From: a virus
Lineage: Duplodnaviria; Heunggongvirae; Uroviricota; Caudoviricetes
Length of the DNA stretch: 14,433 bases
IMG/VR virus record: IMGVR_UViG_2609459801_000010
Reading direction: 5' to 3' (one strand)
Of this stretch, positions 1 through 14,433 are shown one piece after another. The stretch's first letter is position 1. Every line of letters begins with the position of its first letter. Below the pieces are notes generated by a model. That model did not search any database. It was not told the origin of the DNA and saw only the letters and a list, made by a program, of their open reading frames with translations. The translations under genes were made by a program, and so were the position numbers.

Positions 1-411
1 CTGATAATGTTCCGCGAACAGAATGCGCTCTGTGGCGGGGAAATACGCCCGCAGGCTTTCCTTGTTGCACCCGTTCCAGCGTCCGGACGGCTTCGCCCAG
101 ATAATATGGTTCAGCACACTGAAGCGTTCACGCATCATGATTTCGATATCAGATGCCAGGCGATGACCACAGAACAGGTAAAGACTTCCGGCAGGTTTCA
201 GCACCCGCCAGAACTGCGCCAGACACTGGTCCAGCCATTTCAGGTAATCATCGTCGCCCTTCCACTGGTTATCCCAGCCCTCAGGCTTCACTTTAAAGTA
301 CGGCGGGTCCGTGACTATCAGGTCAACAGAATTTTCGGGTAACGACCGGATAAATTCCAGGCAGTCGGCGTTGATTAACTCACAACTGGATATTTTTACA
401 GTATTAAGCAT
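1..411 (-). CDS. DNA methyltransferase (amino-MTase, N6-adenine/N4-cytosine class), N-terminal 137 codons; gene continues beyond window start
   Basis: Reverse-strand translation from ATG at 411-409 gives MLNTVKISSCELINADCLEFIRSLPENSVDLIVTDPPYFKVKPEGWDNQWKGDDDYLKWLDQCLAQFWRVLKPAGSLYLFCGH...; the DPPY tetrapeptide is the catalytic motif of amino-methyltransferases. Frame is open to position 1, so it is absent from the ORF track (no stop in window). Confidence 0.8.
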   Translation of the reverse strand, partial: MLNTVKISSCELINADCLEFIRSLPENSVDLIVTDPPYFKVKPEGWDNQWKGDDDYLKWLDQCLAQFWRVLKPAGSLYLFCGHRLASDIEIMMRERFSVLNHIIWAKPSGRWNGCNKESLRAYFPATERILFAEHYQ

Positions 412-545
412 GGATCATTAAGCCTGTCTCTGATAGGCTCATTCTGCTTTTGCGCAAAGCAGTGGGCCTGAGGTTTGCTTGTGAACCCAACGCATGAGCA
501 GATGGCTGGTGGGTGCCCCTAACACCCACCAGCCGCCCATTTACC

Positions 546-574
546 ACAAATAAAAAAGCCTTCACTGCGGAAGG
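546..574 (-). terminator. Putative intrinsic terminator after the small ORF
   Basis: Minus-strand hairpin GCCTTC-cgcagt-GAAGGC (plus 557-574) followed by TTTTTTATTTG; overlaps the last codons and stop of the 562-759 ORF. Confidence 0.5.
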
Positions 575-759
575 CGTCTGTAACAACCGAACTGATAGTC
601 TGCCAGACCCGCCATAACCAGCTGAGTCAGTATTAACTGGCAGCGTTCGCGTGAAAGGTAAGTATTCTGCGCAATCTCCCCGACTGTCGCCGGTTCGGTG
701 ACGCTTAATTCATTAAACACCACTCTGGCGGTTTCTGTCATATCCTGCTGTTTTAGCAT
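562..759 (-). CDS. Small hypothetical protein (65 aa), possible winged-helix regulator
   Basis: ATG at 759-757 preceded by AAGGGA-like SD; product MLKQQDMTETARVVFNELSVTEPATVGEIAQNTYLSRERCQLILTQLVMAGLADYQFGCYRRLPQ. The longer track ORF (to 846) lacks an RBS. Sits between the Q-like terminator and the methylase. Confidence 0.5.
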   Translation of the reverse strand: MLKQQDMTETARVVFNELSVTEPATVGEIAQNTYLSRERCQLILTQLVMAGLADYQFGCYRRLPQ

Positions 760-878
760 GTCTTTTTCCCTTTTCCGGTTAACGTGACACACCAATAACT
801 CTTGTCGAAAAAGCCAGCAAGCTGAAAGACAGGTATTCACCGCCACCAGCGCGTTTACTGTACTGACGCGATTTCAGT

Positions 879-904
879 CATAAAAAACCCGCCAGGCGGC
901 GGGG
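879..904 (-). terminator. tR'-like intrinsic terminator downstream of the Q-like gene
   Basis: Minus strand: CCCGCC-gcct-GGCGGG stem-loop (plus 888-903) immediately followed by TTTTTTAT; about 80 nt downstream of the Q-like stop. Confidence 0.6.
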
Positions 905-952
905 TGTAAAAAATCTTCTAACGTCAGGCATAAAACGCCTATCGTTAGAGCA

Positions 953-980
953 AATTTACCACAGATTCGGGAAAAATCAA
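953..980 (-). promoter_or_regulatory. PR'-like late promoter (-35 TTGATT, 16-nt spacer, extended -10 TGgTAAATT)
   Basis: Minus strand, starting 6 nt after the Q-like stop codon: TTGATT (980-975), TG at -15/-14, TAAATT (958-953). Gives a predicted ~60-70 nt transcript ending at the 879-904 terminator, like the lambda PR'/tR' unit. Confidence 0.45.
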
Positions 981-985
981 CAACA

Positions 986-1807
986 CTATCGCGTTACCCT
1001 CTTTAACTGCCGCTCCGCCCATGCCTCTTCAATGTCAAACCGAACCACCAACGTATCGTAAAAGCGTTTCACTGATTTTTTCCACGTATCAAGCGTGATA
1101 GCACTCGTCACTTTGCGTATGGCATTAAATGCCTCCGTTGATGGTAGTCTTTCACAGCCACGACCACCACAACGCTGGCAGTCTCTGATAACAGGCATAC
1201 CACGTTTTACCGACTCTTCACGATGAATGGCAACACCACGCCCACGGCAGTCTTTACAGGCAGTGGAAATCTCCCCCTTCCCTTTACATTCAGGACAAGA
1301 AACTTTCACCACCTCCCGAATTTTTTTCCATTCTTCCCAGTAAGACGGATACACACCTTTCGTACACTTTGCCCATACTGGCGGCTTGCCATCCGGATAC
1401 TGAACCTTGTTTGTAAAAACTTCGCCTTCAATAAATTTTTCCCCTCGGCAACAGGGGCACTGCTTTTTACTCGCTGCGCTGCGGGCATAATCCTCAAAAG
1501 CGTACGAAGCCATAATGCGCATCACTACCGGTTTTATTTCTGCCGGAAGTTTTCTCAACGCCGCCACACGATCGCACCGACTGAGTGCATAATCTGCCAG
1601 TAATTCTGTTGCCCGCGCCCTGTCATTCATACTGATGCCCATTTTCCCCAGGAACGCAGAAAACCCCATCTCAGCCCGATTCTGTGTCATGCCCTGCGCG
1701 GCCATCACATCAGTGATACTCAGCGCATCTTTCGACGTTGAGGCCGATGCATCAGTCAGGCCGGGGGATTTTGGGGAGTAGTATTTCGGTAAATCTTCCA
1801 GTTTCAT
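986..1807 (-). CDS. Antitermination protein Q-like (273 aa) with three DnaJ-type CxxCxGxG zinc-finger motifs
   Basis: ATG overlaps the rusA stop (ATGA at 1807-1804). Motifs CPECKGKG, CKDCRGRG, CQRCGGRG plus CPCCRGEK. Position directly after rusA and directly before a promoter-terminator unit matches lambdoid Q synteny. Family assignment relies on synteny and memory, not a search. Confidence 0.6.
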   Translation of the reverse strand: MKLEDLPKYYSPKSPGLTDASASTSKDALSITDVMAAQGMTQNRAEMGFSAFLGKMGISMNDRARATELLADYALSRCDRVAALRKLPAEIKPVVMRIMASYAFEDYARSAASKKQCPCCRGEKFIEGEVFTNKVQYPDGKPPVWAKCTKGVYPSYWEEWKKIREVVKVSCPECKGKGEISTACKDCRGRGVAIHREESVKRGMPVIRDCQRCGGRGCERLPSTEAFNAIRKVTSAITLDTWKKSVKRFYDTLVVRFDIEEAWAERQLKRVTR

Positions 1808-2184
1808 TTTTTGACCTGCTCTTCATGCATTATGGGGTAAATCTTCACCCCCAGACGTCCACCAGATACTGGCTGACCACGAACGATATTGATTTCATCA
1901 AACTGCTCATCGTCCATTAGCAACCCCGCATGCGTCAGCGCATCCAGCGGCGCTTTCAGAATATTGTCCAGATCACGGCGGCGCTTATCCGGTGGTTCTG
2001 CAATAATTTTTATTGCCAACCTTCCGGACAGGCTTAATTTCAGCCGCTGCTGGCGAACAATAAGCGCCACTGCCCGGCGATAACGCTCCCCGGCTTTTGA
2101 TACAAAATATGTGCTGCCACGACGACGCCAGTAAGTGTTCACCGTTGGCGGGTAAGGCAAAACAAATTCTATGCGTTCAGTCAT
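1804..2184 (-). CDS. rusA: Crossover junction endodeoxyribonuclease RusA (Holliday junction resolvase), 126 aa
   Basis: Product MTERIEFVLPYPPTVNTYWRRRG...PPDKRRRDLDNILKAPLDALTHAGLLMDDEQF resembles E. coli RusA (LPWPPSNNRYY..., [23 protein letters not shown]...). Start abuts the upstream stop (TAAATG). Confidence 0.9.
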   Translation of the reverse strand: MTERIEFVLPYPPTVNTYWRRRGSTYFVSKAGERYRRAVALIVRQQRLKLSLSGRLAIKIIAEPPDKRRRDLDNILKAPLDALTHAGLLMDDEQFDEINIVRGQPVSGGRLGVKIYPIMHEEQVKK

Positions 2185-3243
2185 TTATGCTTTCCACTTC
2201 AGAACACCCGAATTTCTCGCGTGCATTAAAAAACGAATCAGCAACAACAGCTGGCTGCCGTGTTTTTCTTCAAAATCTTTTACCCCGGCGTGTAGTTCGC
2301 TATGGCATTTACGGCACAGCGGAATAACAAACAAATCATCAGCCTTTGTTCCCATCCCTCCCAGTCCATGACCAATGATGTGATGCGGATCATCTGCCTG
2401 ATTGCCACACGTCATGCATTTCTGCGTTTTTACCCAGCGCGTGTATACAGGCATCTCTTCCCGTTGTGATTTCTGGCGCTGGAGATACTGAGCCGGTGAC
2501 TCGGGATCAACGGCAATGCTGACCACCGTCTTTTCCTGTGGTGGGTTCTGTTGCTGGTGGGCGTGAGGCAGCGGCGCAAGATTTTTTGTGCGCTGTTTCA
2601 GTATGCTGGTGGCGGTCTGCTCTCCCGGTATGATGTCGCTTTCACTGTACACAGAGCGAATTTTTTCCGCACGCAACCCCAGCGAACGACGTAATACCGC
2701 TTCCGGTAGCGCGTCCGCCACCTGATTGCGGACCGCCCACCAGGATAATTCAGCCAGAGATAATTCACGCTCCTGCGTACCGCTTATTGCGTGACCGATG
2801 ACGTCAATCATCCATGCTGACAGGTTTTGATGAGCAAGTTGCCCGAGTGATTCGGATGTCTGGTCACGCAGCTGGTTGTCGCAGTGCCAGCACAACACCA
2901 TTGCGCCGGTACCATAACGGTGAATGACGGTTTCGCTGTGATGATAATCGCCGTGTGGCCACTGGCAGGATTTAATATGGCGCAACAGCCAGTCAGACAA
3001 TGCACCAGCACCACCAGCAGCACGAATCACCCGTGCGTTACTGAAAAACGGCAGCAATGTTTTGTCTTCCACCAGCGGCTGGCGAGCGGCAGGAACGACC
3101 CCGGACGGCAGATTACGCATGCTTTTTGGTTCCGGCTCCACCAGTATTCTGCCGTTATGGAATGCTGACATTGATTCACGGCCTGGCTTAACGATAACCA
3201 GACCGAGTTCCGGTACCAGAACAGATCGAAGTAATACCCGCAC
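2185..3243 (-). CDS. DUF968/YdfU-like nin-region protein (352 aa) with C-terminal HNH-like Cys/His motif
   Basis: GTG start at 3243-3241 preceded by GGAGGTAAT; size and position (just upstream of rusA and Q) match YdfU-type proteins. C-terminus CMTCGNQADDPHHIIGHGLGG...LCRKCH resembles a CxxC...HH...CxxCH HNH signature. Confidence 0.65.
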   Translation of the reverse strand: MRVLLRSVLVPELGLVIVKPGRESMSAFHNGRILVEPEPKSMRNLPSGVVPAARQPLVEDKTLLPFFSNARVIRAAGGAGALSDWLLRHIKSCQWPHGDYHHSETVIHRYGTGAMVLCWHCDNQLRDQTSESLGQLAHQNLSAWMIDVIGHAISGTQERELSLAELSWWAVRNQVADALPEAVLRRSLGLRAEKIRSVYSESDIIPGEQTATSILKQRTKNLAPLPHAHQQQNPPQEKTVVSIAVDPESPAQYLQRQKSQREEMPVYTRWVKTQKCMTCGNQADDPHHIIGHGLGGMGTKADDLFVIPLCRKCHSELHAGVKDFEEKHGSQLLLLIRFLMHARNSGVLKWKA

Positions 3244-3244
3244 A

Positions 3245-3523
3245 TTACCTCCAGATCCGTTGCTGGAATGTGCGGGACGGACGCGCTGGCCGTTCTGAGT
3301 AAGGGAGCCTGACGGAGATTATCCAGTGACGGTAGTCGAGGCTAAGGGCTTTTTTAACCTCGCATCCGCGCCCGCGGTAACACTGAATGAGCCATTCAGC
3401 CTGTTCTTCGGTGCAGGGGTCGTGCTGATACCAGTCAGATTTGAATGCATGAGAACGCCGCCCGTGCCTGCTGGCAGGGGCGGCAGAGTTATCCGAATTG
3501 TAAAATTTGGTATCGTGCGCCAT
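3245..3523 (-). CDS. Hypothetical phage protein (92 aa)
   Basis: ATG at 3523-3521; stop TAA overlaps the GTG start of the downstream gene, suggesting coupling. No recognisable motif; weak SD. Confidence 0.45.
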   Translation of the reverse strand: MAHDTKFYNSDNSAAPASRHGRRSHAFKSDWYQHDPCTEEQAEWLIQCYRGRGCEVKKALSLDYRHWIISVRLPYSERPARPSRTFQQRIWR

Positions 3524-3790
3524 CTGTTTTCTCTGCTGGCGCAGCAGGTGCCAGTTGTTCAGGCTGACGTATGAAGTATAAATAAACTGGCTCCAGTGTA
3601 AAGCCCCACCTTAATGGAATAAAAACCAAACAACAGATTGCTGGGATAAAAATACAACGCTTATTATTAAAAGCGGTTAGATAAATTAAATTTTAATGTT
3701 ATGCAAATCTGCCAGATTAGCATAATATTTCATTTGAAAACCGCTGAAATAACAATCTTATCGGGATTAATCATATTAAGGTGAGTAAAT

Positions 3791-3877
3791 ATGGAAAACA
3801 ACAAATCTGCACATTACGCTCCTTTTTTATCTGTAATACTTTTTGTATTTTGTTGTGTATGGGCGGTATTTTTATAA
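3791..3877 (+). CDS. Candidate small hydrophobic peptide (28 aa), possible membrane peptide or type I toxin-like ORF
   Basis: ATG at 3791 preceded by AAGGTGAG at good spacing; product MENNKSAHYAPFLSVILFVFCCVWAVFL has a polar N-terminus then one hydrophobic helix; a terminator hairpin follows 20 nt downstream. Below the 60-aa track threshold. Confidence 0.25.
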   Translation: MENNKSAHYAPFLSVILFVFCCVWAVFL

Positions 3878-3892
3878 AACACACCCACAAAT

Positions 3893-3927
3893 AAATCAAA
3901 CCCGCTACAGCGGGTTTGATTTATATA
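3893..3927. terminator. Bidirectional intrinsic terminator
   Basis: Perfect inverted repeat AAATCAAACCCGC-taca-GCGGGTTTGATTT; the GC stem CCCGC/GCGGG is followed by a U-rich run in both orientations. Lies just after the peptidase stop (3932) and after the small plus-strand ORF. Confidence 0.6.
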
Positions 3928-3931
3928 GTTG

Positions 3932-6196
3932 TTATACGGAAACTGGCACACGAGCAGGCAATGGATAGTGAGCCCAGTTATTAGCATTTAAAGCTCTTAC
4001 GCCATCAGCATAAACTTGTGTGTTTCCATCTAATGATTTTAAAGTTACTACAATAGTTACAGGTAAAGGCTCCATTAAGGCCGGTTCATTCGCTCTCAAC
4101 GTTGTTTTAGCTTGAAGAGCCCAGTTACCCGAAGTAATTCCTTTATTAAATGCCTTGCGATGAATTTTTACTGGTGACCACTTTCCACCATGCTCAATTT
4201 GAGCTCTCTCATATCCAGATTGACCGTTTTCTCCTTCCATAGGTACTTTTCCTTTTATAGTATTATTCTCAATTAAGCCAAAACTTAGCTCTACGTTCGC
4301 GCGAACATATTCACTGCCGGCATTAGGGTTCAGTGGTGGTGCATATGCAGCAGTAATTACAATCTCACCTTTAAATTTTCCATTTTGAATAAGTGCCGAT
4401 GGTATGGGATAGTTTTCCTTTCTCCACCTCACCCCAGGAACCAAGAATGTTTGGAAAATCAGAGTAAACCTATCATCACTATCATATAAGGTCTCAATAA
4501 CCTCATTAGGAATTCCCGCTCCCAAATAGCGTCTTTCACTTGGCGAGTAATCAGGAGAAGATAATTGAGCGGAATGAATTAATAATGCTTTAATCAATGA
4601 TGGTGAAACATTAAAGTCTGAATTAGTGGCTATTCTCTGCCATGTATGCGCAGCTAAACTTGCCACAATTGGAGCAGCAAAACTAGTACCAAAATTAGAG
4701 CAAAGCCTATTATCTGGCCCTACGACCTTTAAACTGCTTGCTCCTACATTCCAAGGTCTATGAACCCCACCGCCAGCATGGATTATATCTGGCTTTGGAG
4801 TAAATACAGGCCCAGGGCCACGACGAGTATATGGTGTCGGTGTTCCAATTTCACTTAAAGCATCATTAGCTTCCATATGAGAAACTGAACCAACTGTTAG
4901 TGCTCGGACTGACTCTCCAGGAGAGGAAATTAAATCAGCACCTCCAAGCGGATCAGGATTTGGCCATGTACGTATAGGTTCATCTACATAATTACCTGCA
5001 GCAACTACAAACAAAATACCAAATTTATCGCTGAGCCGATCTAACTCCATCGCAAAATCACTAAACATCTGCTCATTACATGGTCCGCCTCCCAAAGATA
5101 AATTCCAGACTTTTATATCTGGTCTTTTATTTACAGCATCTGCTAGCCTCAGAATTAAATCTGATATATAAGATCCATTTTCATCTAAAGCACAAACATC
5201 ATGGATTTTAGATTTTGTATCAGGAATCCATGGATGATTGTCATTTAAAAAATGAGCGCCTGATATCAATGAAGACACCATAGTCCCATGTTCATAACTC
5301 GTATCAGGAGGAATTACGTATGTTTCCCTACTCACTACCCAAGGAGTAATTGTTGCCGCGATGGGGCTTACCCCAGTGTCAAATACAGCAACAATGGGTA
5401 ATTCTTCTGATGGTACGGGAAAGCTATTTGTTTCAATGCCAACAGAATCACTTACACTAACCGGGAATGCTGAATATTTTGGTTCTGGAATTAACGTTCT
5501 TATACCCGGGTAATCAATGAGAATGTCTAATATATATCTATCATTTGGGGATAAATCCATTATCCTTAATAAGGGAAGACCACATTTTGGTCTAATCTCA
5601 TCATATTTAACTCCGTGTTGTTCTAATATAGAAATAACGTTTTCATAGTTGTTGTAAGTTGCATCTTCACCTGTGTACTCAAATAGTCGTACAAGGATGT
5701 TTGATGATTCAAACAAACCATCAGTGCCTCCTGGAACCTTCCTATTCTCATCCCAAGGTTCAATGCGCTCAATCGCGCTTAGGTTAGCCAAAATCGCTTT
5801 AATATTCCGATGTAAAATGACTGACTCTAATACGTCAAAACAGCCGGCATGAGCAGCAACCAACATTTCATCTATTTTGGCATGACCGGCATTTTGCAAT
5901 CCAGCCTCTTGAGCAATTTTGTTCGGCCTATGCGTTTTGGCTATTCCCTGGTCTCTTAATTTGAAAACCAAAGTACCCAAGCTTCCAGGGTACTCTGAAA
6001 GTTTGGATTCTAAATAATGTTTACTGGTTGTTAAATTTCTTACTAGCCCTTGTCTATATTCGGCTGTTACATCAACCAATACCTTTGCCCCACCGCCAGC
6101 GTTTACTATTGCACCCAAGTCACTACTGGAAAAAGGGATTCTTAACATTGGGTTTGTAACTTTTGCGTTACTAAACTGTGTACCCCTTCTGCTCAT
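3932..6196 (-). CDS. Subtilisin-like serine peptidase (peptidase S8 family), 754 aa, no signal peptide; IetS-like
   Basis: Catalytic triad in canonical subtilase order: Asp in VAVFDTGVS, His in YEHGTMVSS, oxyanion Asn in VVAAGNY, Ser in NFGTSFAAPIVAS. Polar N-terminus with no hydrophobic signal sequence. Strong SD (AAGGAG/AGGAG) before the ATG at 6196. About 270 aa N-terminal and 200 aa C-terminal to the catalytic core have no motif I recognise. Confidence 0.85.
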   Translation of the reverse strand: MSRRGTQFSNAKVTNPMLRIPFSSSDLGAIVNAGGGAKVLVDVTAEYRQGLVRNLTTSKHYLESKLSEYPGSLGTLVFKLRDQGIAKTHRPNKIAQEAGLQNAGHAKIDEMLVAAHAGCFDVLESVILHRNIKAILANLSAIERIEPWDENRKVPGGTDGLFESSNILVRLFEYTGEDATYNNYENVISILEQHGVKYDEIRPKCGLPLLRIMDLSPNDRYILDILIDYPGIRTLIPEPKYSAFPVSVSDSVGIETNSFPVPSEELPIVAVFDTGVSPIAATITPWVVSRETYVIPPDTSYEHGTMVSSLISGAHFLNDNHPWIPDTKSKIHDVCALDENGSYISDLILRLADAVNKRPDIKVWNLSLGGGPCNEQMFSDFAMELDRLSDKFGILFVVAAGNYVDEPIRTWPNPDPLGGADLISSPGESVRALTVGSVSHMEANDALSEIGTPTPYTRRGPGPVFTPKPDIIHAGGGVHRPWNVGASSLKVVGPDNRLCSNFGTSFAAPIVASLAAHTWQRIATNSDFNVSPSLIKALLIHSAQLSSPDYSPSERRYLGAGIPNEVIETLYDSDDRFTLIFQTFLVPGVRWRKENYPIPSALIQNGKFKGEIVITAAYAPPLNPNAGSEYVRANVELSFGLIENNTIKGKVPMEGENGQSGYERAQIEHGGKWSPVKIHRKAFNKGITSGNWALQAKTTLRANEPALMEPLPVTIVVTLKSLDGNTQVYADGVRALNANNWAHYPLPARVPVSV

Positions 6197-7325
6197 ATGC
6201 TCCTGACTCCTTCAGAATGTTTGAAATTACTCTTGATGTAAGTTTGTACAAATTAGCAAGAACTCTGATAGAAAATAATTTTTTATCTTTAGAACGTAAC
6301 CAACGAATTTCATCTTCGTAAGTGCTTAAATTTACACCTTCCATAAGCGATTGCGCAAGATACAAACGCCTATACAATTTATGGTGATTTATCACACTTG
6401 CACCTTCAATAACTGCATCCCTACGTGCATCCAAGCTCACCTGTTCAATTATTGCTCCGGATAATCCCTCCGATTTTCTTGATAAATCACTTAAATCTAG
6501 ATCGCTACATATCATATTCTTTAAACGATTTTTCCAAATTAACTCTCTCTGATGTATGTCAGGCAGAGGCATTGGAATTCTGAAGCTAAATCGCCTCCAG
6601 ATTGCAGGATCCAGAAGTTGCTCATGGTTAGTTGAGGCAATAATTACCGTATCCTCTGATGCCGCATCCATATTCTGCAATAGTGAAATGACAACTCGCT
6701 GAAGCTCACCTATATCTCTCTCATTACCTCTTGCTCCAGCTAAAGCATCAAATTCGTCTAAAAAAAGCACTGATGGCCTCTGCATTACATAATCGAAAAC
6801 CTGTCTAAGATTTTTGCTGGTTTGTCCCAATAAACTACTAATCAAAGTATCGCAACGCACTGTAAGAAGTGGAAAATCTAAGCGGGTAGCGATGTACTTA
6901 GATAACATAGTCTTACCTGTTCCTGGCTTTCCATACACGAGCATACGACTCGGCAATGCTGCATCAGCTTTAACAAACTCATCATAACGTTGAACATTAG
7001 TGATAAACTCTTCAACACGGGTACTGATTGCTGCAGGCAGAAAAATCTCTGAACTGTCTAATTTAGGATAACTGACATCAACAGTGTTGAGTCGACTATC
7101 AATATCTACCGGTAATGAGCCCAGAGATATCCCACCTCCAGCCCTTTGAGCTCCTGCCAACGCCTGGGGAGCTCTAAGCAACCTTTCTCTTATCATTCTG
7201 GCTTGCTTGACCTCCCCTTTTTGTTCGAGCTTATCTGCCAGCAACCCAGCATAATTACTAGCCATCGAAGCATTTGCCTTTGTTGCACCTTCAATGATTT
7301 TTAACACTTCTGATAAATAATCCAT
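6171..7325 (-). CDS. AAA+ ATPase (classical AAA clade), 384 aa; IetA-like
   Basis: Walker A LVYGKPGTGKTML, Walker B SVLFLDEFDAL, second region of homology IIASTNHEQLLDPAIWRRFSF. GGGAG SD before the ATG at 7325. 3' end overlaps the peptidase start by 26 nt, implying co-translation. Confidence 0.85.
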   Translation of the reverse strand: MDYLSEVLKIIEGATKANASMASNYAGLLADKLEQKGEVKQARMIRERLLRAPQALAGAQRAGGGISLGSLPVDIDSRLNTVDVSYPKLDSSEIFLPAAISTRVEEFITNVQRYDEFVKADAALPSRMLVYGKPGTGKTMLSKYIATRLDFPLLTVRCDTLISSLLGQTSKNLRQVFDYVMQRPSVLFLDEFDALAGARGNERDIGELQRVVISLLQNMDAASEDTVIIASTNHEQLLDPAIWRRFSFRIPMPLPDIHQRELIWKNRLKNMICSDLDLSDLSRKSEGLSGAIIEQVSLDARRDAVIEGASVINHHKLYRRLYLAQSLMEGVNLSTYEDEIRWLRSKDKKLFSIRVLANLYKLTSRVISNILKESGAYEQKGYTV

Positions 7326-7518
7326 TCAACACTCCCACAACAAAAAGCCACAGCAATCAAAAAATGAGCACACAGAATCAAAATACTCTCTAATCGTAAC
7401 GCATTTTGAGATTTTTGATACGTTTTTTTGGGATTATGTAACGCCAAATGGTCATTTTGTGTCAGAAAAATAAATCTTAGTACCGAGAATATGTAGCTTC
7501 CATCCTTCATCGTTCTAT

Positions 7519-7950
7519 TCATCCCTGATCTCCAAGCCTCTCTCGAAAACCATTCTGATAAAACGCCAGCACACGCTGCATAACTTCGCTCTTCCGGCAC
7601 TCGCGACAGATTATGTTCAGACGCCTGTCGTAGCGGCGTATTTCTCCGTCTGGTAATGACCAGATAAGGTCCGGATCAACCACAGATGGTTTCTTCACCT
7701 TTGCCCTGGATAGTTTTTTGCGGGCATTTTGCCAGTCCTTACGAGCCTGTTCAGACGGGAATAACCCGTAACCAGAGTTGTATACATCGCCACTGGCAAC
7801 CAGCTCTCTGGCGAGAACGCTCATCAGATATCTTGTCGCACCTGTCTTGGCTTCCAGTTGCCGTAACGTCTCGCGCCCACTCCGGCGTACTAGCTCAACA
7901 ACCTGCCCTTTAATTTTTTCCCGCTCTTCTTGTGTAAATACTTTTGCCAT
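7519..7950 (-). CDS. Hypothetical phage protein (143 aa)
   Basis: ATG at 7950-7948 with GGAGG SD 6 nt upstream (preferred over the TTG at 7965 that starts the track ORF). Product MAKVFTQEEREKIKGQVVELVRRSGRETLRQL...; no recognised motif. Confidence 0.5.
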   Translation of the reverse strand: MAKVFTQEEREKIKGQVVELVRRSGRETLRQLEAKTGATRYLMSVLARELVASGDVYNSGYGLFPSEQARKDWQNARKKLSRAKVKKPSVVDPDLIWSLPDGEIRRYDRRLNIICRECRKSEVMQRVLAFYQNGFRERLGDQG

Positions 7951-7965
7951 AAGCGCCTCCGGCAA

Positions 7966-8727
7966 TCACTTTTCCGATACAACACGGCGGGAAGAATCAG
8001 TAATCTGTCGAACAATATCCCGGTGCTTGTTCAGCTCCCGCAGCGCGGCGCAGACTCGCTCCCACTTCTGGACATGATTTTTCGCCCGACGCAGTTCGCG
8101 GTTTGCCATATGCAGTGATGGTAAAACCAGGTCATCCGCTCGCGTTTCAGTAAACGATGGCAGCGACTGCACAATGTCCGCCACAGTTTCTGTTTTAATA
8201 TCTTCCTGTGTTGCAGCCTCCTGTACTGGTAACGCAACACCTGCGGTATGAGGAAAGGCCTTACCATCAGTTTCCGCTACCGATGCTGCTTTCGGCTCTG
8301 CTGGTAAATTATCGCCCGGTATGCAGTAACGAAATTTACCGCCCTGATTTACGCGAATCAGACGACCTTTGCTGATTGCCATTGCCAGCGTTGAAGCCAC
8401 TTTGCGTGATGTGGTACCAAACAATGTAGCCAGCTCATCAGCCATTTGTGGTCCTCGTTGTTCAATCGTCGCGGTTAAATCGCACTCTGAGATTTTCGCT
8501 ACTGTTGCTGTGGTGATTTCTTCCGGCAGTTCTGCCTGCGCTGGCTGTTCCTGCTGAACGTTGTTATCAGCCACACGCCAGGTGTACGCGCTTTTATCAA
8601 CAAAACCAGCCTTTTTCAGTTCCCATAGTTCGTTCAGCACTTCTTCACGACTGATATCAAGTCGCGCAGCAAGTTCTATGGATGTGGCTTTTCCCATTGC
8701 TTTCAGTGCGTCAAAAACAGTCTCCAT
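7966..8727 (-). CDS. Hypothetical phage protein (253 aa) with two winged-helix-like segments
   Basis: ATG at 8727-8725 with GGGAGA upstream (preferred over the longer ORF to 8778, which would overlap the DnaC-like gene). [44 protein letters not shown] and [32 protein letters not shown] look like wHTH units. Confidence 0.5.
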
Positions 8728-8749
8728 TAAATTTTTCTCCCGGTAAAAA

Positions 8750-9496
8750 TTACTTCGCAATTCCTGGCTGGACGACATTCGGACGCCAGCTCTCCCAGTT
8801 AAAATTCCCCCATAGCCCGCCGTTCATGGTCATGCGATCCATAATCCGCTCGCCGAGCAATGTTTTCATGGCCTCATAGTTCAGGTTTGTCAGCATCCCC
8901 ACGCTGCGCATCGACGCTGTCCGGCGATCAACAATCTGGTGCAGTACCACCTGCTCGTTTTTCGTCTCGCGCTGAATGCCAATTTCATCAAGAACCAGCA
9001 GATCCACTTCGCACAGTTCCCGCAAAAATTTTTCGCCTGACTGCCCATCGTCATAGCTGGCGTGGAGGGCACTCATAACATCAGCCACGGTAACCACAAT
9101 CACTGTCTGACCGTCTTTCAGCAGGCGATTCCCGATAGCTGCTGCTAAGTGGTTCTTCCCGGTACCAGGTTTTCCGCTAAACGCGAAATTTGTGCATCCG
9201 GTCATCAGTTCATCAGCGATAGATTTCGCCTGGCTCAACGCGTATCGCTGACCGTCGTTCTGCACCTGGTAATTCGCAAACGAGCATTTACGGTGCAACG
9301 GCTGGATGCCTGAGCGATTCAGAATTTTTTCCACCCGCAACTGGCGATTCAGGCGGTTGATCTCCTCGCTACGTTTCTGGCCTTCAGCAAGTTGCCACTC
9401 GTGCCACTCCGCTACCGTTCTGAATGGGGCGGTTACATGTGGCGGAGCCAGTCTTCGGATACGTTCAAGAACGCCGCCTGCCGCAATGTTTTTCAT
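8750..9496 (-). CDS. DnaC-like replicative helicase loader (248 aa)
   Basis: [39 protein letters not shown] is nearly identical in pattern to the E. coli DnaC Walker A region; Walker B LLVLDEIG. Directly downstream of the initiator gene. Confidence 0.9.
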
Positions 9497-9502
9497 GACA
9501 CG

Positions 9503-10465
9503 TCACCCCCTGAATCCCGGCGGTATTTCAGTGTCCGGTTCAGAAATGTGATTCACGCAACGCTGCGCAGGCAAACGCCCCAGGCGGATAACCAGTTCAT
9601 CCCATTTTTCCCGGAGTTTTGCCGGACTCATGATGTTTTTTACCCAGAACGAATCCCGCTGGAGACGCCCAAACATTTCACAAATTTGTCTGTGAGTTCT
9701 GCCATCCAGCATCCGCATTGTGCGAACGTCATTGGCCCATGCTGTCCAGTTGGGTTCTTTCGGTCTAGTGATCTCGCCATCATAGCTGGCCGCCTGCTCG
9801 TAAAGACTCACGATTCGTCCCCAGATCCACTGTGCGCACACCAAATCTTCCTGACTTCCCCACTGGCGTTTTTTCGCACTGAACACAACCGCGTCAGGGT
9901 GTCGGGTTAAAAAATCCTGTTCAGCCGTCTGCGGGTCCGGTTGCGAAGCGTCCGGACAAGAAGATCTTTTATCTGACGGATCAGGTTTTAATACTGACGG
10001 ATCGGGGTCAATCATCGGCCCCCTAATCGGCAGTTTTTTATCAACAGTTGATCCATCAAAATTTGACGGGTCAACCGTTGAGGGGTCAATATTTGACGGG
10101 TCAACTGTTAACGGGTCATTTTTTGCCGGGCTAATTTTTCTTTTCGGTTTATATGACTCACGCGCCGCCGCCGCAGCTGCTTCGAGTTTTTCCACATTAA
10201 GCCGATAGATATTGCTTACATTACGCCCACCGACCTTACGCTCTTCCTTCGTCAGCCAGCCCTCTTTCGCCAGTTCTGCAATAGCCGATTTCACTGTGGA
10301 TTCACTTCTTGCACCGATCTGACGCCGGATAGTTTCAATGGCAGGCCATGACACGCCCTCGTCATTGCTGTAGTCTGCAAGACGGGCCATAACCGCCACC
10401 CTGGATAAGATCATGCCGGTGAAGGCGCACCCTTCCCAGACAAGACCATGAAGCTTGCTGCTCAT
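9503..10465 (-). CDS. Phage replication initiator (O-like) with N-terminal HTH and DnaT-like C-terminal domain (320 aa from ATG at 10465)
   Basis: C-terminus ...NHISEPDTEIPPGFRG matches the DnaT C-terminus (...VSEPDSQIPPGFRG). N-terminal HTH-like segment; central low-complexity DPSxVD repeats encoded by the iterons. ATG at 10465 (after a GGGGG run) preferred over the GTG at 10480. Confidence 0.8.
   Translation of the reverse strand: MSSKLHGLVWEGCAFTGMILSRVAVMARLADYSNDEGVSWPAIETIRRQIGARSESTVKSAIAELAKEGWLTKEERKVGGRNVSNIYRLNVEKLEAAAAAARESYKPKRKISPAKNDPLTVDPSNIDPSTVDPSNFDGSTVDKKLPIRGPMIDPDPSVLKPDPSDKRSSCPDASQPDPQTAEQDFLTRHPDAVVFSAKKRQWGSQEDLVCAQWIWGRIVSLYEQAASYDGEITRPKEPNWTAWANDVRTMRMLDGRTHRQICEMFGRLQRDSFWVKNIMSPAKLREKWDELVIRLGRLPAQRCVNHISEPDTEIPPGFRG
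10048..10118. repeat. Origin-like iterons: five copies of TTGAcGGGTCAA-like 12-mers at strict 15-bp phasing inside the initiator gene
   Basis: Copies at 10048 (ttgatccatcaa), 10063 (ttgacgggtcaa), 10078 (ttgaggggtcaa), 10093 (ttgacgggtcaa), 10108 (ttaacgggtca); each is an inverted repeat TTGAC-nn-GTCAA; AT-rich stretch at 10119-10150. Same logic as the lambda ori inside gene O. Confidence 0.6.
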
Positions 10466-10487
10466 AAACCCCCCGAACACCGTGCTT

Positions 10488-10913
10488 TTAGTGCATCACC
10501 ACAGCATTCCCTGCCGGGCCGCCGCGATTCATCTGGTCATACAAAACAACCGCTGACGCAACAAAATCATCGACATCCTTCCCCAGCCGATCCCTCCGTT
10601 CGACGATCTCACGGTAATATTCAGAACTGTGGCTGCGCATACGGGCCACCAGCAAAGGCGGCATCGCCTTTTCGATCGCCGGTAACAGAGCCTGCATTTT
10701 TTCAACAGCATCAGGGGTGTCTTTATCCAGCCAACGGAAAATTTTCTGGGTATTACGGGCCAGGGCTTCCGGATGGCTGTCGTCATACAGTTCCGGGAAC
10801 GTCATTCCCAGCTCGAAATACGCTTTGGTAATTTTCGCAGCCGGCACTTTTTCGCCGTCCGGATGCGCCCAGACATTCATCGCCATGCGGATGTGTTCAT
10901 GCTTGATTTTCAT
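10488..10913 (-). CDS. YdaT-like protein (141 aa), likely CII-type regulator
   Basis: ATG at 10913 with AGGAG SD; begins MKIKHEHI; lies between the cro-like and replication genes as in the Rac ydaS-ydaT-ydaU-ydaV arrangement. Assigned from synteny and memory. Confidence 0.55.
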   Translation of the reverse strand: MKIKHEHIRMAMNVWAHPDGEKVPAAKITKAYFELGMTFPELYDDSHPEALARNTQKIFRWLDKDTPDAVEKMQALLPAIEKAMPPLLVARMRSHSSEYYREIVERRDRLGKDVDDFVASAVVLYDQMNRGGPAGNAVVMH

Positions 10914-11178
10914 GAATCAAGCTCCTAGAAAGTGGTTGTGTTAACGTTTTGGTATCTTCCAGCTCGGGCCAAATATTCATCCAATCAAAAGGCCTTAGTT
11001 GCTGACGTGTAACTTCACCATTACTGGCTCGCTCAATAAGGACACATAACGATGCCCCTAACACTTGACCTTTACTCAATGCCTTTCTTAGATAACCGAT
11101 GCTGGTACCACACTCGCATGCAAACATACGCTGTTCATCTGACGAAAGAGAATTGAGAAATATTCTTAATTCTTCCAT
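10897..11178 (-). CDS. Cro-like HTH regulator (YdaS family-like), 93 aa
   Basis: ATG at 11178 with strong SD TAAGGAG 5 nt upstream; HTH-like CGTSIGYLRKALSKGQ and ...NGEVTRQQLRPFDW; divergent from the repressor gene across an operator region. Confidence 0.65.
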   Translation of the reverse strand: MEELRIFLNSLSSDEQRMFACECGTSIGYLRKALSKGQVLGASLCVLIERASNGEVTRQQLRPFDWMNIWPELEDTKTLTQPLSRSLIHENQA

Positions 11179-11203
11179 AGCTACTCCTTAGTAAACACAG
11201 CAA

Positions 11204-11272
11204 AGAATACCCACAGGTAAACAAAAGTCAATACCCACAGGTTGTTTACCTTGCGGTAATCGCATCTATTAT
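11204..11272. promoter_or_regulatory. Divergent promoter/operator region (OR-like) between cro-like and repressor genes
   Basis: Two copies of ATACCCACAGGT (11207-11219, 11231-11243), 24 bp apart. On the minus strand they overlap a -35 TTGACT (11231-11226) and a -10 TATTCT (11209-11204) for the cro-like gene. On the plus strand a -10-like TATTAT (11267-11272) ends 6 nt before the repressor ATG. Confidence 0.5.
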
Positions 11273-11278
11273 TTACCT

Positions 11279-11698
11279 ATGGACAAATATGAATTTAGAC
11301 GACAGCAACTCATCAAAATTCGTGATGAGAAATGCGATGGTAAAGCGGTTAACGTGGCCAGAAAGATCGGGCGCGAGCCTTCTTATGTATCAAGAATGTT
11401 GTACCCAGAGGGGAAAAAGGGAAAAAAACGGATCGCTGATGATATGGTGGAGATTATCGAAGAGTCCTTTGGGTTACCCCGGGGATGGATGGATGGTATC
11501 GTTTCATCATCAACGAACACAGCCTCCAGTTATGAAACAAGGGTTCTAACGCCACGACAACGTATTTTTTTAGATCTCTTAGACGAACTGCCAGAAAGTG
11601 AAGCGGATAAATTATTAAAAACTCTTGAAGAGAAAAAACAGTATTACAATATGATCTACGAAGAAATCCGTAAAAAGAAAGCACAAAACGCATCATAG
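11279..11698 (+). CDS. Prophage repressor-like HTH protein (139 aa), RacR/DicA-position
   Basis: Divergent from the cro-like gene; HTH-like AVNVARKIGREPSYVSRML; no SD upstream and a -10 hexamer just before the ATG suggests a leaderless mRNA, as for lambda cI from PRM. Confidence 0.65.
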   Translation: MDKYEFRRQQLIKIRDEKCDGKAVNVARKIGREPSYVSRMLYPEGKKGKKRIADDMVEIIEESFGLPRGWMDGIVSSSTNTASSYETRVLTPRQRIFLDLLDELPESEADKLLKTLEEKKQYYNMIYEEIRKKKAQNAS

Positions 11699-11739
11699 CT
11701 CACCAAACAACTAGTCACCAGTTAAGACACCGCAAAAAT

Positions 11740-11778
11740 TTACCCATGGGTATTTACTTTTTAAATACCTATGGGTAT
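11740..11778. promoter_or_regulatory. OL-like operator pair downstream of the repressor gene
   Basis: Perfect palindrome TACCCATGGGTA (11741-11752) and near-palindrome ATACCTATGGGTAT (11765-11778), 25 bp apart; same TACCCAnnGGTA core as the OR-like copies; positioned to control plus-strand transcription of the ydfA-DicF-dicB operon. Confidence 0.45.
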
Positions 11779-11963
11779 CCTTCTTTTCATACCAACCCAC
11801 CCCGCCCCACAGAATGCAGGGCAATACTTCGAGTTACCAGGCAGTGGTCAGGGGTTAAGTAGCCAGCCCGAGGCGTAAGAACATGACGGCAGGGTTCAAC
11901 TTTAATAACTATGCAGCAGGTTTTTGTTCCGCTACCCCGGCGTTAAGGGGAAATGAGGTCAAC

Positions 11964-12116
11964 ATGGATATGCTCAATCTTGGCAACAACGAATCTCTGG
12001 TATGTGGCGTGTTCCCCAACCAGGACGGCACGTTTACCGCGATGACGTATACCAGAAGCAAAACGTTTAAAACTGAAGCTGGCGCGCGTCGCTGGTTAAC
12101 CAGAAACACTGACTGA
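11964..12116 (+). CDS. ydfA: YdfA-like small protein (50 aa)
   Basis: ATG at 11964 with GAGG SD 6 nt upstream; product MDMLNLGNNESLVCGVFPNQDGTFTAMTYTRSKTFKTEAGARRWLTRNTD; first gene after the operators, as ydfA is in the Qin dicB operon. Identity recalled, not searched. Confidence 0.5.
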   Translation: MDMLNLGNNESLVCGVFPNQDGTFTAMTYTRSKTFKTEAGARRWLTRNTD

Positions 12117-12127
12117 TGAGGTTGACG

Positions 12128-12529
12128 ATGGAATTTAAAGATTTACCAGTACCATTCCAGGAAATGGCATCGAATGTGGTTCGCTCTCAACTGGCGACTC
12201 TTGACCTGAGTACCGTAGAAAAAGAAACCATCGATACTATATCCGGTAACGTGCGTCGTGCCTTTATAGGTCTGTATGAAGAGAAGCGCCTATTCGGCGG
12301 ACAGAATTCGCCTGAAAACAAGAATCAAGCAAATGATGAGAAGCTGAAACACATTATCGCCTTACTTTTGGAAGACGCAAAACGTCTACAGCAACTGGAA
12401 CCAAATGCAGGCACAGAGGCCCGCATTTGGATTGCCATGAAATCACTCAAATGTGAAAGCAGTGATTATTTCAAAACAACAATTAAAACTACTCAACTTT
12501 CGGGAGAGCTACTGAAGAAATTGCCATAA
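12128..12529 (+). CDS. Hypothetical protein (133 aa)
   Basis: ATG at 12128 with GAGG SD 6 nt upstream (an alternative ATG at 12116 overlaps the upstream stop but lacks an SD). Lys/Glu-rich product MEFKDLPVPFQEMASNVVRSQLATLDLSTVEKETIDTISGNVRRAF...; no recognised motif. Confidence 0.5.
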   Translation: MEFKDLPVPFQEMASNVVRSQLATLDLSTVEKETIDTISGNVRRAFIGLYEEKRLFGGQNSPENKNQANDEKLKHIIALLLEDAKRLQQLEPNAGTEARIWIAMKSLKCESSDYFKTTIKTTQLSGELLKKLP

Positions 12530-12767
12530 GAGCATGGTCTTTCTCTTGTTCTGCAAGATGAGCATTAATACCTGGTATGGTTTTTTCAAATTTATCTATC
12601 TGTTGAATAACAACTTCGCGGTATACGTTTGTTTTTGTACCACCAAGCGCAGCCGTTAATGCAGAAAGCATATTTAGTATCATATCAGTGCGATATGAAA
12701 GAATCCTGATAGCTTCATCTTGTTTTTCAATAATAGATTGCAGGGCCTCAATTTGCTTTTTATCCAT
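12489..12767 (-). CDS. Hypothetical protein (92 aa), convergent with and overlapping the 3' end of the 12128-12529 gene
   Basis: ATG at 12767 with very strong SD AGGAGG 5 nt upstream; product MDKKQIEALQSIIEKQDEAIRILSYRTDMILNMLSALTAALGG... (coiled-coil-like then a hydrophobic stretch). No plus-strand ORF of 60 aa or more covers 12530-12806. Confidence 0.45.
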   Translation of the reverse strand: MDKKQIEALQSIIEKQDEAIRILSYRTDMILNMLSALTAALGGTKTNVYREVVIQQIDKFEKTIPGINAHLAEQEKDHALMAISSVALPKVE

Positions 12768-13098
12768 TTCACCCTCCTGAGGGTTGGTAATTAAGGAGTT
12801 CTCCACGGGTCAGGTGGAGTGCGTGCGCCGGACACGGGTGAACATCCGGCACTGACAGTTTACTGAAAGGATATGTCCCTGAAAAGTCAGGGCATAACGC
12901 GAAAGCGCACGGCGAAATTGGTCTCTCTGTACGGTGTCGTTAAATTTAGTTCGACCGTGCGCTTCCGGTTGTGGCAATCCGCGAAATGGTGCGGCGGTAA
13001 GTATGGCGGGGTTATTCCTTCCCCCGTTGAGGACACCGGGTTGTCAGGTTGACCATACGCTTAAGTGACAACCCCGCTGCAACGCCCTCTGTTATCAA

Positions 13099-13151
13099 TT
13101 TTCTGGTGACGTTTGGCGGTATCAGTTTTACTCCGTGACTGCTCTGCCGCC
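13099..13151 (+). ncRNA. dicF: DicF small regulatory RNA (ftsZ-targeting antisense sRNA)
   Basis: TTTCTGGTGACGTTTGGCGGTATCAGTTTTACTCCGTGACTGCTCTGCCGCCC matches the DicF sequence as I recall it; a T-run follows after the GGCGG...CCGCC stem; lies just upstream of dicB as in the Qin dic operon. Ends are approximate because DicF is processed. Confidence 0.75.
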
Positions 13152-13326
13152 CTTTTTAAAGTGAATTTTGTGATGTGGTGAATGCGGCTGAGCGCACGCG
13201 GAACAGTTAAAACCAAAAACAGTGTTATGGGTGGATTCTCTGTATCCGGCGTTAATTGTTAACTGGTTAACGTCACCTGGAGGCACCAGGCACCGCATCA
13301 CAAAATTCATTGTTGAGGACGCGATA

Positions 13327-13515
13327 ATGGAAACGTTATTACCAAACGTTAATACGTCTGAAGGTTGTTTTGAAATTGGTGTCACTATCAGTAACCCAGT
13401 ATTTACTGAAGATGCCATTAACAAGAGAAAACACGAACGGGAGCTATTAAATAAAATATGCATTCTTTCAATGCTGGCCCGTTTACGTCCGATACAAAAA
13501 GGATGCTGGCAATGA
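13327..13515 (+). CDS. dicB: Cell division inhibitor DicB (62 aa)
   Basis: Product METLLPNVNTSEGCFEIGVTISNPVFTEDAINKRKHERELLNKICILSMLARLRPIQKGCWQ closely resembles E. coli DicB; GAGGA SD 8 nt upstream; stop overlaps the next start (ATGA). Confidence 0.85.
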   Translation: METLLPNVNTSEGCFEIGVTISNPVFTEDAINKRKHERELLNKICILSMLARLRPIQKGCWQ

Positions 13516-13703
13516 ATACAGCATTTGCACTTGTTCTGACAGTTTTTCTTGTTTCCGGAGAGCCAGTTGATATTGCAGTCAGTGTTCACAGGACAATGCA
13601 GGAGTGTGTGACTGCAGCAACCGAACAGAAAATTCCCGGTAACTGTTACCCGGTCGATAAAGTTATTCACCAGGATAATAACGAAATCCCGGCAGGTCTT
13701 TAA
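13512..13703 (+). CDS. ydfD: YdfD-like small protein (63 aa) with N-terminal hydrophobic segment
   Basis: Product MNTAFALVLTVFLVSGEPVDIAVSVHRTMQECVTAATEQKIPGNCYPVDKVIHQDNNEIPAGL; translationally coupled to dicB; matches Qin YdfD as recalled. Confidence 0.75.
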   Translation: MNTAFALVLTVFLVSGEPVDIAVSVHRTMQECVTAATEQKIPGNCYPVDKVIHQDNNEIPAGL

Positions 13704-13795
13704 AACAGTTCCGTAATAAATATCCGGTTTCATTCTTATATGCCAGCAATGGCAGGGATTTGTTCACCCTTAAATCTGTAATGAGGTAAAACAAA

Positions 13796-13977
13796 ATGAG
13801 TAAAGTCTTTATTTGCGCCGCCATTCCGGACGAACAGGCAATAAAGGAAGAAGGTGCCGTCGCTGTAGCCACTGCCATTGAAGCCGGTGATGAACGTCGC
13901 GCCCGCGCAAAATTTCACTGGCAATTCCTGGAACATTATCCGGCTGCTCAGGACTGCGCTTATAAATTTCTTGTCTG
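13796..13977 (+). pseudogene. ydfE-like gene, 5' fragment only (first 60 codons), truncated by IS1 insertion
   Basis: ATG at 13796 with GAGG SD; MSKVFICAAIPDEQAIKEEGAVAVATAIEAGDERRARAKFHWQFLEHYPAAQDCAYKFLV then the frame runs into the IS1 inverted repeat (last codons VMTPTY and stop come from IS1). Confidence 0.55.
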
Positions 13978-14433
13978 GGTAATGACTCCAACTTATTGAT
14001 AGTGTTTTATGTTCAGATAATGCCCGATGACTTTGTCATGCAGCTCCACCGATTTTGAGAACGACAGCGACTTCCGTCCCAGCCGTGCCAGGTGCTGCCT
14101 CAGATTCAGGTTATGCCGCTCAATTCGCTGCGTATATCGCTTGCTGATTACGTGCAGCTTTCCCTTCAGGCGGGATTCATACAGCGGCCAGCCATCCGTC
14201 ATCCATATCACCACGTCAAAGGGTGACAGCAGGCTCATAAGACGCCCCAGCGTCGCCATAGTGCGTTCACCGAATACGTGCGCAACAACCGTCTTCCGGA
14301 GCCTGTCATACGCGTAAAACAGCCAGCGCTGGCGCGATTTAGCCCCGACATAGCCCCACTGTTCGTCCATTTCCGCGCAGACGATGACGTCACTGCCCGG
14401 CTGTATGCGCGAGGTTACCGACTGCGGCCTGAG
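13978..14433 (-). mobile_element. IS1 insertion sequence, partial (one end plus part of the transposase region; continues beyond window end)
   Basis: Terminal inverted repeat GGTAATGACTCCAACTTATTGATAGTG starts at 13978; the encoded minus-strand protein is identical in pattern to IS1 InsB. Confidence 0.9.
13993..14433 (-). CDS. insB: IS1 transposase InsB (C-terminal part; 5' end beyond window)
   Basis: ...[128 protein letters not shown]; frame is open upstream to the window edge (track shows only the part from the internal Met at 14370). Confidence 0.9.

Follow-up and report, generated by a model that had tools for sequence, protein, structure and literature searches.

The dicBF locus of the Qin prophage of Escherichia coli K-12, with the order ydfABC-dicF-dicB-ydfDE, is repressed by DicA. 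In K-12, the small RNA DicF represses ftsZ by base pairing, and the regions of the RNA that pair with ftsZ (3' part) and with xylR (5' part) have been defined (PMC5069750). A 190-nt DicF species has been described, together with the roles of RNase III and RNase E (PMC10448788). The 3' end of DicF is an intrinsic terminator, and the dicB-ydfD message arises by read-through (PMC10448788, PMC5069750). DicB acts via MinC and blocks ManYZ-dependent phages, activities known for the K-12 allele only, and it also acts through ZipA in K-12 (PMC6832061). YdfD of K-12 binds IspG, inhibits it and causes lysis, and this lysis is counteracted by DicB (PMC8835842). Repression of the K-12 locus is leaky: DicF builds up in stationary phase, and the promoter is spontaneously on in a subpopulation of cells (PMC10448788). 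Broad retention of the dicBF locus, often in multiple copies, has been described previously (PMC5069750).

A close known system is the early-left operon of phage mEp460, and likewise those of the Tritos, HannyBb and PPompW prophages. The sequenced phage genomes mEp460 and Tritos carry the cassette in the same order, located between repressor-proximal genes and a 2.47-kb exonuclease gene that is followed by xis. The kil gene in the PL operon of lambda is alike in that it encodes an inhibitor of host division within an early-left operon under CI control. However, its sequence and mechanism are unrelated, as Kil hits FtsZ and ZipA directly and without an sRNA partner. In phage Evi, a Kil gene is found at the same position.

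Prophage context and prevalence of the cassette

We analyzed a stretch of DNA of 14,433 nucleotides, referred to here in its full length as the window. The window is a lambdoid prophage with a dicF-dicB-ydfD cassette in its early-left operon. Very probably, this is the canonical dicBF cassette at its normal site in the early-left (PL-like) operon of a lambdoid E. coli prophage. By sequence alignment, positions 1-13977 show 5 mismatches (99.96% identity) to a prophage that adjoins ompW in E. coli TUM14664 and contains int and xis. The early region of the prophage looks recent and mostly intact, except for an exonuclease gene truncated by IS1. On the plus strand, the order is the gene for a 139-aa regulator, a ydfA homologue, a 133-aa gene, the dicF leader, dicF, dicB, ydfD and the start of the exonuclease gene. 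Running right to left in the window are the genes for a Q-like antiterminator and RusA, a DUF968 gene, the IetA/IetS defence pair, replication genes, and YdaT-like and YdaS/Cro-like genes. The IetA/IetS (iteA/iteS) anti-phage pair, an AAA ATPase and an S8 peptidase at 3932-7325 on the minus strand, scored 472.6 bits (IetA) and 995.8 bits (IetS) with PADLOC and is cargo between the replication genes and the DUF968/RusA/Q region. The host targets ftsZ, minC and ispG lie outside the window.

The locus shares with K-12 Qin the gene order, the 174-nt spacer, the coupling of dicB and ydfD through ATGA, a ydfA homologue as the first gene and an exonuclease gene as the next gene after the cassette. 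DicF is 100% identical, the leader and spacer are 96-100% identical, and DicB and YdfD are 89% and 94% identical, respectively. The exonuclease gene is cut by an insertion sequence in both, IS2 in K-12 and IS1 in the window. However, the window has a 139-aa CI-like protein and YdaS-like and YdaT-like genes where Qin has DicA and DicC, and the operator sequence differs. In addition, ydfB and ydfC are replaced in the window by the 133-aa gene and an opposite-strand 92-aa gene, and the 5' leader is longer. By alignment, homology to Qin was limited to 12782-13977 (94.6% identity) and ydfA, from which we infer that the cassette and its leader form a mosaic block common to prophages of differing immunity. 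The mEp460 operon is alike in its DicB allele (one change), in an identical YdfD, in the presence of an exact DicF, in an annotated opposite-strand ORF upstream of the leader, and in running on into the exonuclease gene and xis. Unlike the window, mEp460 has a C2/DicA-type repressor and an intact exonuclease gene. The DicF, DicB and YdfD matches cannot be due to chance.

The module is an already known and ordinary one, a common variant in a known place. Of 5426 complete E. coli genomes, 4671 contain a match to the 1.2-kb segment 12800-13990; the copy number has a median of two and reaches nine. The 53-nt DicF was found in 3947 of these 5426 genomes, and its best copy was at least 99% identical in at least 3761 records. 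The exact DicB and YdfD proteins of the window each occur on at least 1000 public contigs, where the sources call them DicB and DUF1482/lysis protein YdfD. The significance of the locus is small beyond correct annotation, as the module is among the best-studied in E. coli prophages and is found in most strains.

A preliminary description, made from the letters alone, had presented the module as retained intact. Intact it is, while "retained" overstates the case because it implies survival in a decaying prophage. Given the 99.96% match to a prophage with int and xis and the presence of the cassette in phage genomes, its intactness is merely what would be expected. With minor corrections of this kind, the earlier reading is supported. 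The functions that it cited, namely repression of ftsZ translation by DicF, inhibition of division through MinC and phage resistance by DicB, and lysis by YdfD, are documented for K-12 (PMC5069750, PMC6832061, PMC8835842).

DicF, DicB and YdfD

DicF was the single match above the gathering score in an Rfam scan of the whole window (RF00039, 13101-13152, plus strand; 76.7 bits against a gathering score of 48, E 8e-16, model positions 1-52 of 52). The 53-nt sRNA lies at 13100-13152 on the plus strand, where it is identical to K-12 dicF (b1574) at 53 of 53 nt. The presence of DicF had therefore been recognized correctly, and its earlier placement at 13099-13151 was shifted by one base relative to this exact match. 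The identity with Qin is base for base over approximately 13042-13294, DicF included. With all 53 nt identical, neither the pairing region for the ftsZ ribosome-binding site (3') nor that for xylR (5') is changed from K-12. An alignment to K-12 had been proposed as a check; in it, the ftsZ-pairing region is unaltered, and dicB has neither a frameshift nor a premature stop and passes the curated DicB model. The predicted intrinsic terminator hairpin of DicF spans 13115-13151 on the plus strand (-15.9 kcal/mol), with a T5 tract directly after it at 13153-13157. For annotators, it is relevant that RefSeq records mostly leave DicF unannotated.

A conserved non-coding leader extends 5' of DicF from 12782, where the homology to K-12 Qin begins, to 13099 (plus strand). 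A leader hairpin is predicted at 12896-12970. K-12 and the window share this predicted stem, with divergent loops; the stem differs by one C-to-T change, and the pair is kept as G-U. Counting back 190 nt from the DicF 3' end places the putative RNase III cut, the 5' end of the 190-nt precursor, at approximately 12963-12968, which we infer to be the 3' base of this hairpin.

DicF and dicB are separated by a 174-nt spacer (13153-13326, plus strand), which is the 5' untranslated region of dicB. The spacer differs from K-12 by 1 base and has the same length in K-12 and mEp460. The Rfam family STnc100 aligned over its full length to 13150-13359, comprising the spacer and the first dicB codons, with 38.7 bits (E 2e-6), which is below its gathering score of 47. 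STnc100 may therefore represent the dicB leader as found in related prophages.

The dicB gene (13327-13515, plus strand), with its ATG at 13327 and its stop ending at 13515, encodes a cell-division inhibitor of 62 aa and is of the mEp460-type allele. The protein matched both Pfam PF05358 (127.4 bits, cut-off 27) and NCBIfam NF049927 (132.7 bits, cut-off 100) over residues 1-62 of 62. The 62-codon frame is open, and neither a frameshift nor a premature stop was found in dicB. Compared with K-12 DicB (89% identity), 7 of the 62 residues are substituted, five of them among the last eight, and residues 1-54 are nearly invariant. Two types of DicB allele can be distinguished, differing chiefly in the last eight residues: one ends in LRPIQKGCWQ (the window and mEp460) and the other in LRLMPKGCAQ (K-12 and Tritos). 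The codon differences between the types are mostly non-synonymous, with only 2 changed codons synonymous relative to K-12.

The ydfD gene (13512-13703, plus strand), with its ATG at 13512 and its stop ending at 13703, encodes a DUF1482 lysis protein of 63 aa. It scored 88 bits on DUF1482 (Pfam PF07358; cut-off 25) and is 94% identical to K-12 YdfD. The ATGA at 13512-13515 forms the overlap of the dicB stop and the ydfD start. Both protein lengths and this overlap agree with what had been described before, and both proteins are full length and passed their family models. DicB and the products of the 133-aa and 92-aa genes had no PADLOC match. An antisense ORF of 201 aa that runs across the whole cassette (13128-13733, minus strand) was rejected as spurious, because its frame is broken in K-12 (129 aa) and in Tritos (109 aa).

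Repressor and operator candidates

A candidate CI-like repressor of 139 aa is encoded at 11279-11698 on the plus strand (phrog_5736, transcriptional regulator, E 6e-70). Its gene matches K-12 dicA in position and strand, and some sources name the protein "phage repressor protein CI". Against the DicA model, the protein scored 24.5 bits, under the cut-off of 101, and its likeness to DicA was found only in the C-terminal 46 aa (33% identity). No DicA gene is located directly upstream of the operon in the window. By these measures, the 139-aa protein is not DicA but the DicA counterpart by position, and it belongs to a different immunity type. The immunity type of the window was found in 822 genomes. 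When the repressor was compared with solved structures, only a non-significant likeness to a winged-helix (Z-alpha) fold was detected (E 0.08). A Cro-like (YdaS-type) regulator, identified by profile matches, is encoded at 10897-11178 on the minus strand and is followed by a YdaT-family gene (10488-10913, minus strand).

The 12-bp palindrome TACCYRYRGGTW was found at four sites in the window, giving seven matches on both strands against 0.03 matches expected. All four sites are located in the two intergenic regions that flank the repressor gene. An OR-like pair (11208-11243), with starts at 11208 and 11232 and thus 24 bp apart, lies between the divergent cro-like gene and the repressor gene. 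Promoter-like sites were found in both directions in this region, at 11245-11272 (plus strand) and 11231-11204 (minus strand). An OL-like candidate control region (11741-11781, plus strand) lies in the gap between the repressor gene and the ydfA homologue, with palindromes at 11741-11752 and 11766-11777 that are 25 bp apart, and it aligns with the K-12 dicA-ydfA intergenic region. Weak promoter hexamers read by eye at 11753-11781 (TTTACT-17-TATCCT, 8 of 12 matches) overlap the second OL-like site; a promoter scan of the OL-like site gave nothing that reaches the threshold of the scanner. A fifth, weaker palindrome site, TACCTATGGACA at 11274-11285, overlaps the start codon of the repressor gene. 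The 16-bp inverted repeat at 11741-11777 had been flagged as terminator-like by a scanner and also gave a microRNA match, which was a chance one. A more fitting reading of this repeat is a pair of neighbouring operator palindromes, and not necessarily a terminator.

In their layout, these putative operators are of the OR/OL type of lambdoid immunity regions. A similar arrangement has been described for dicA, dicC and dicBp (PMC10448788). It is well founded to suppose that the 139-aa protein would repress the operon through the palindromes. The preliminary description had held that the operon must be tightly repressed by the upstream repressor and operators. A candidate repressor and operator-like palindromes are indeed present; this repressor is not DicA, and "tightly" is too strong since repression in K-12 is leaky (PMC10448788). 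For annotators, it is useful that the repressor varies between prophages with an identical cassette. Because the controlling repressor differs, results obtained with K-12 DicA or the antirepressor Rem are not directly transferable to this strain.

Probable transcription through the operon, and its truncated end

The first gene of the operon is the ydfA homologue (DUF1391; 11964-12116, plus strand), which scored 98.7 bits on Pfam PF07151 and aligned to K-12 ydfA. Between the OL-like operators and this gene lies an early-left leader (11795-11960) that recurs in conserved form in more than 4000 E. coli genomes; about 86 nt of it are missing from K-12 Qin. The leader may be a 5' extension of the ydfA-like ORF, in a 77-aa form (11883-12116) that is annotated as such in Tritos. 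A put-like or nut-like antitermination RNA was also considered for the leader (11782-11966) and rejected: its folding was not better than that of shuffled sequence (z +1.4), and Rfam gave no match.

In the place of ydfB and ydfC, the 133-aa gene is located at 12128-12529 on the plus strand (phrog_1363, E 9.5e-45), and it is annotated in TUM14664. The 92-aa gene (12489-12767, minus strand) matched phrog_18692, a PHROG family of unknown function, at 92 of 92 residues (E 5.9e-63). It is convergent with the 133-aa gene, with an overlap of 41 nt, and lies between the promoter and the dicF leader, inside the path of the operon. The gene has a strong AGGAGG ribosome-binding site, and its exact protein occurs on at least 1000 contigs; a promoter scan found no consensus promoter for it. 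The junction between the 92-aa gene and the dicF leader was found in 126 of the 5426 genomes. Since mEp460 has an annotated opposite-strand ORF at the same position, the arrangement is compatible with early-left transcription. It is improbable that the 92-aa gene acts as a convergent-transcription gate that sets the flow to dicF, dicB and ydfD; if true, the gate would be a control layer that K-12 Qin lacks.

The sequences that matter for the mechanism established in K-12 are the same or almost the same here, so that this mechanism would apply. In the lysogen, the CI-like repressor bound to the palindromes would shut the promoter at approximately 11750-11780, as suggested by the K-12 work. A lapse of repression would lead to a polycistronic transcript of approximately 1.4 kb or more, from which RNase III, cutting near 12965 at the hairpin base, and RNase E, cutting at 13100, would release DicF. 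DicF would end at its own intrinsic terminator, and read-through of the terminator would yield dicB and ydfD, with their translation coupled via the ATGA overlap. DicF would then block the translation of ftsZ, plus that of xylR and pykA. DicB would send MinC to midcell and block the entry of ManYZ-dependent phages, and YdfD would inhibit IspG and lyse dividing cells. Counting against this reading of a canonical, repressor-controlled cassette are the positional nature of the link between repressor and operators, the lack of a promoter above the scanner threshold at the OL-like site, the 7 of 62 residues at which DicB departs from the K-12 protein that was studied, the location of the host targets outside the window, and the 92-aa opposite-strand gene, which could hamper read-through.

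The last point leads to a rival explanation, in which the cassette is intact in sequence and uncoupled from the repressor-controlled promoter. The convergent 92-aa gene would halt or weaken transcription from the early-left promoter, leaving the cassette silent or dependent on a local promoter. It would fit this explanation that the 92-aa gene, with its strong ribosome-binding site, is on the opposite strand between the promoter and dicF, and that its junction with the dicF leader is rare (126 of 5426 genomes). A promoter upstream of dicB was also proposed in an older study, as that study is cited in PMC10448788. However, mEp460 has an opposite-strand ORF there and yet must transcribe through to the exonuclease gene and xis. 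A promoter scan of 12768-13326 on both strands found no consensus promoter, only a weak match on the minus strand, and primer extension in K-12 revealed no internal promoter (PMC10448788). We regard uncoupling of this kind as very improbable.

A defect could also lie in DicB itself, if the tail LRPIQKGCWQ, compared with LRLMPKGCAQ, had led to a loss or change of function, so that only DicF and YdfD were active. The clustering of five of the 7 substitutions in the last eight residues, with only 2 of the changed codons synonymous, points in this direction. The same allele, with one further change, is nevertheless carried by phage mEp460, and the exact DicB sequence is present on at least 1000 contigs. 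The protein also scores 132.7 bits against a curated-model cut-off of 100, with residues 1-54 nearly invariant. Impairment of DicB by its tail therefore appears extremely unlikely, and the canonical cassette in an early-left operon is the preferred reading.

Downstream of ydfD, the operon continues into the 5' fragment of a 3'-5' exonuclease gene of the ydfE type (13796-13977, plus strand; approximately 61 codons), which matched phrog_2082 at residues 1-61 of the 823-aa family. The gene is intact, with 2472 bp, in TUM14664, Tritos and mEp460. In the window, the homology to TUM14664 stops at 13977, and IS1 abuts the exonuclease gene at codon ~61. The element (13978-14433, minus strand) has its end GGTAATGACTCC at 13978, carries insB on the minus strand and extends past the end of the window. 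It is also of use to annotators that IS1 truncates the operon right 3' of ydfD. The exact IS1 junction was absent from the 5,426 complete E. coli genomes and from species-representative genomes. In the TUM14664 prophage, an IS1 in the same orientation is located just past ompW, 4.49 kb further. It is possible that an IS1-adjacent deletion removed the exonuclease gene, xis, int and ompW, which would lock the prophage in. The IS1 of the window and that of TUM14664 differ at 6 of 456 nt, which counts against a deletion.
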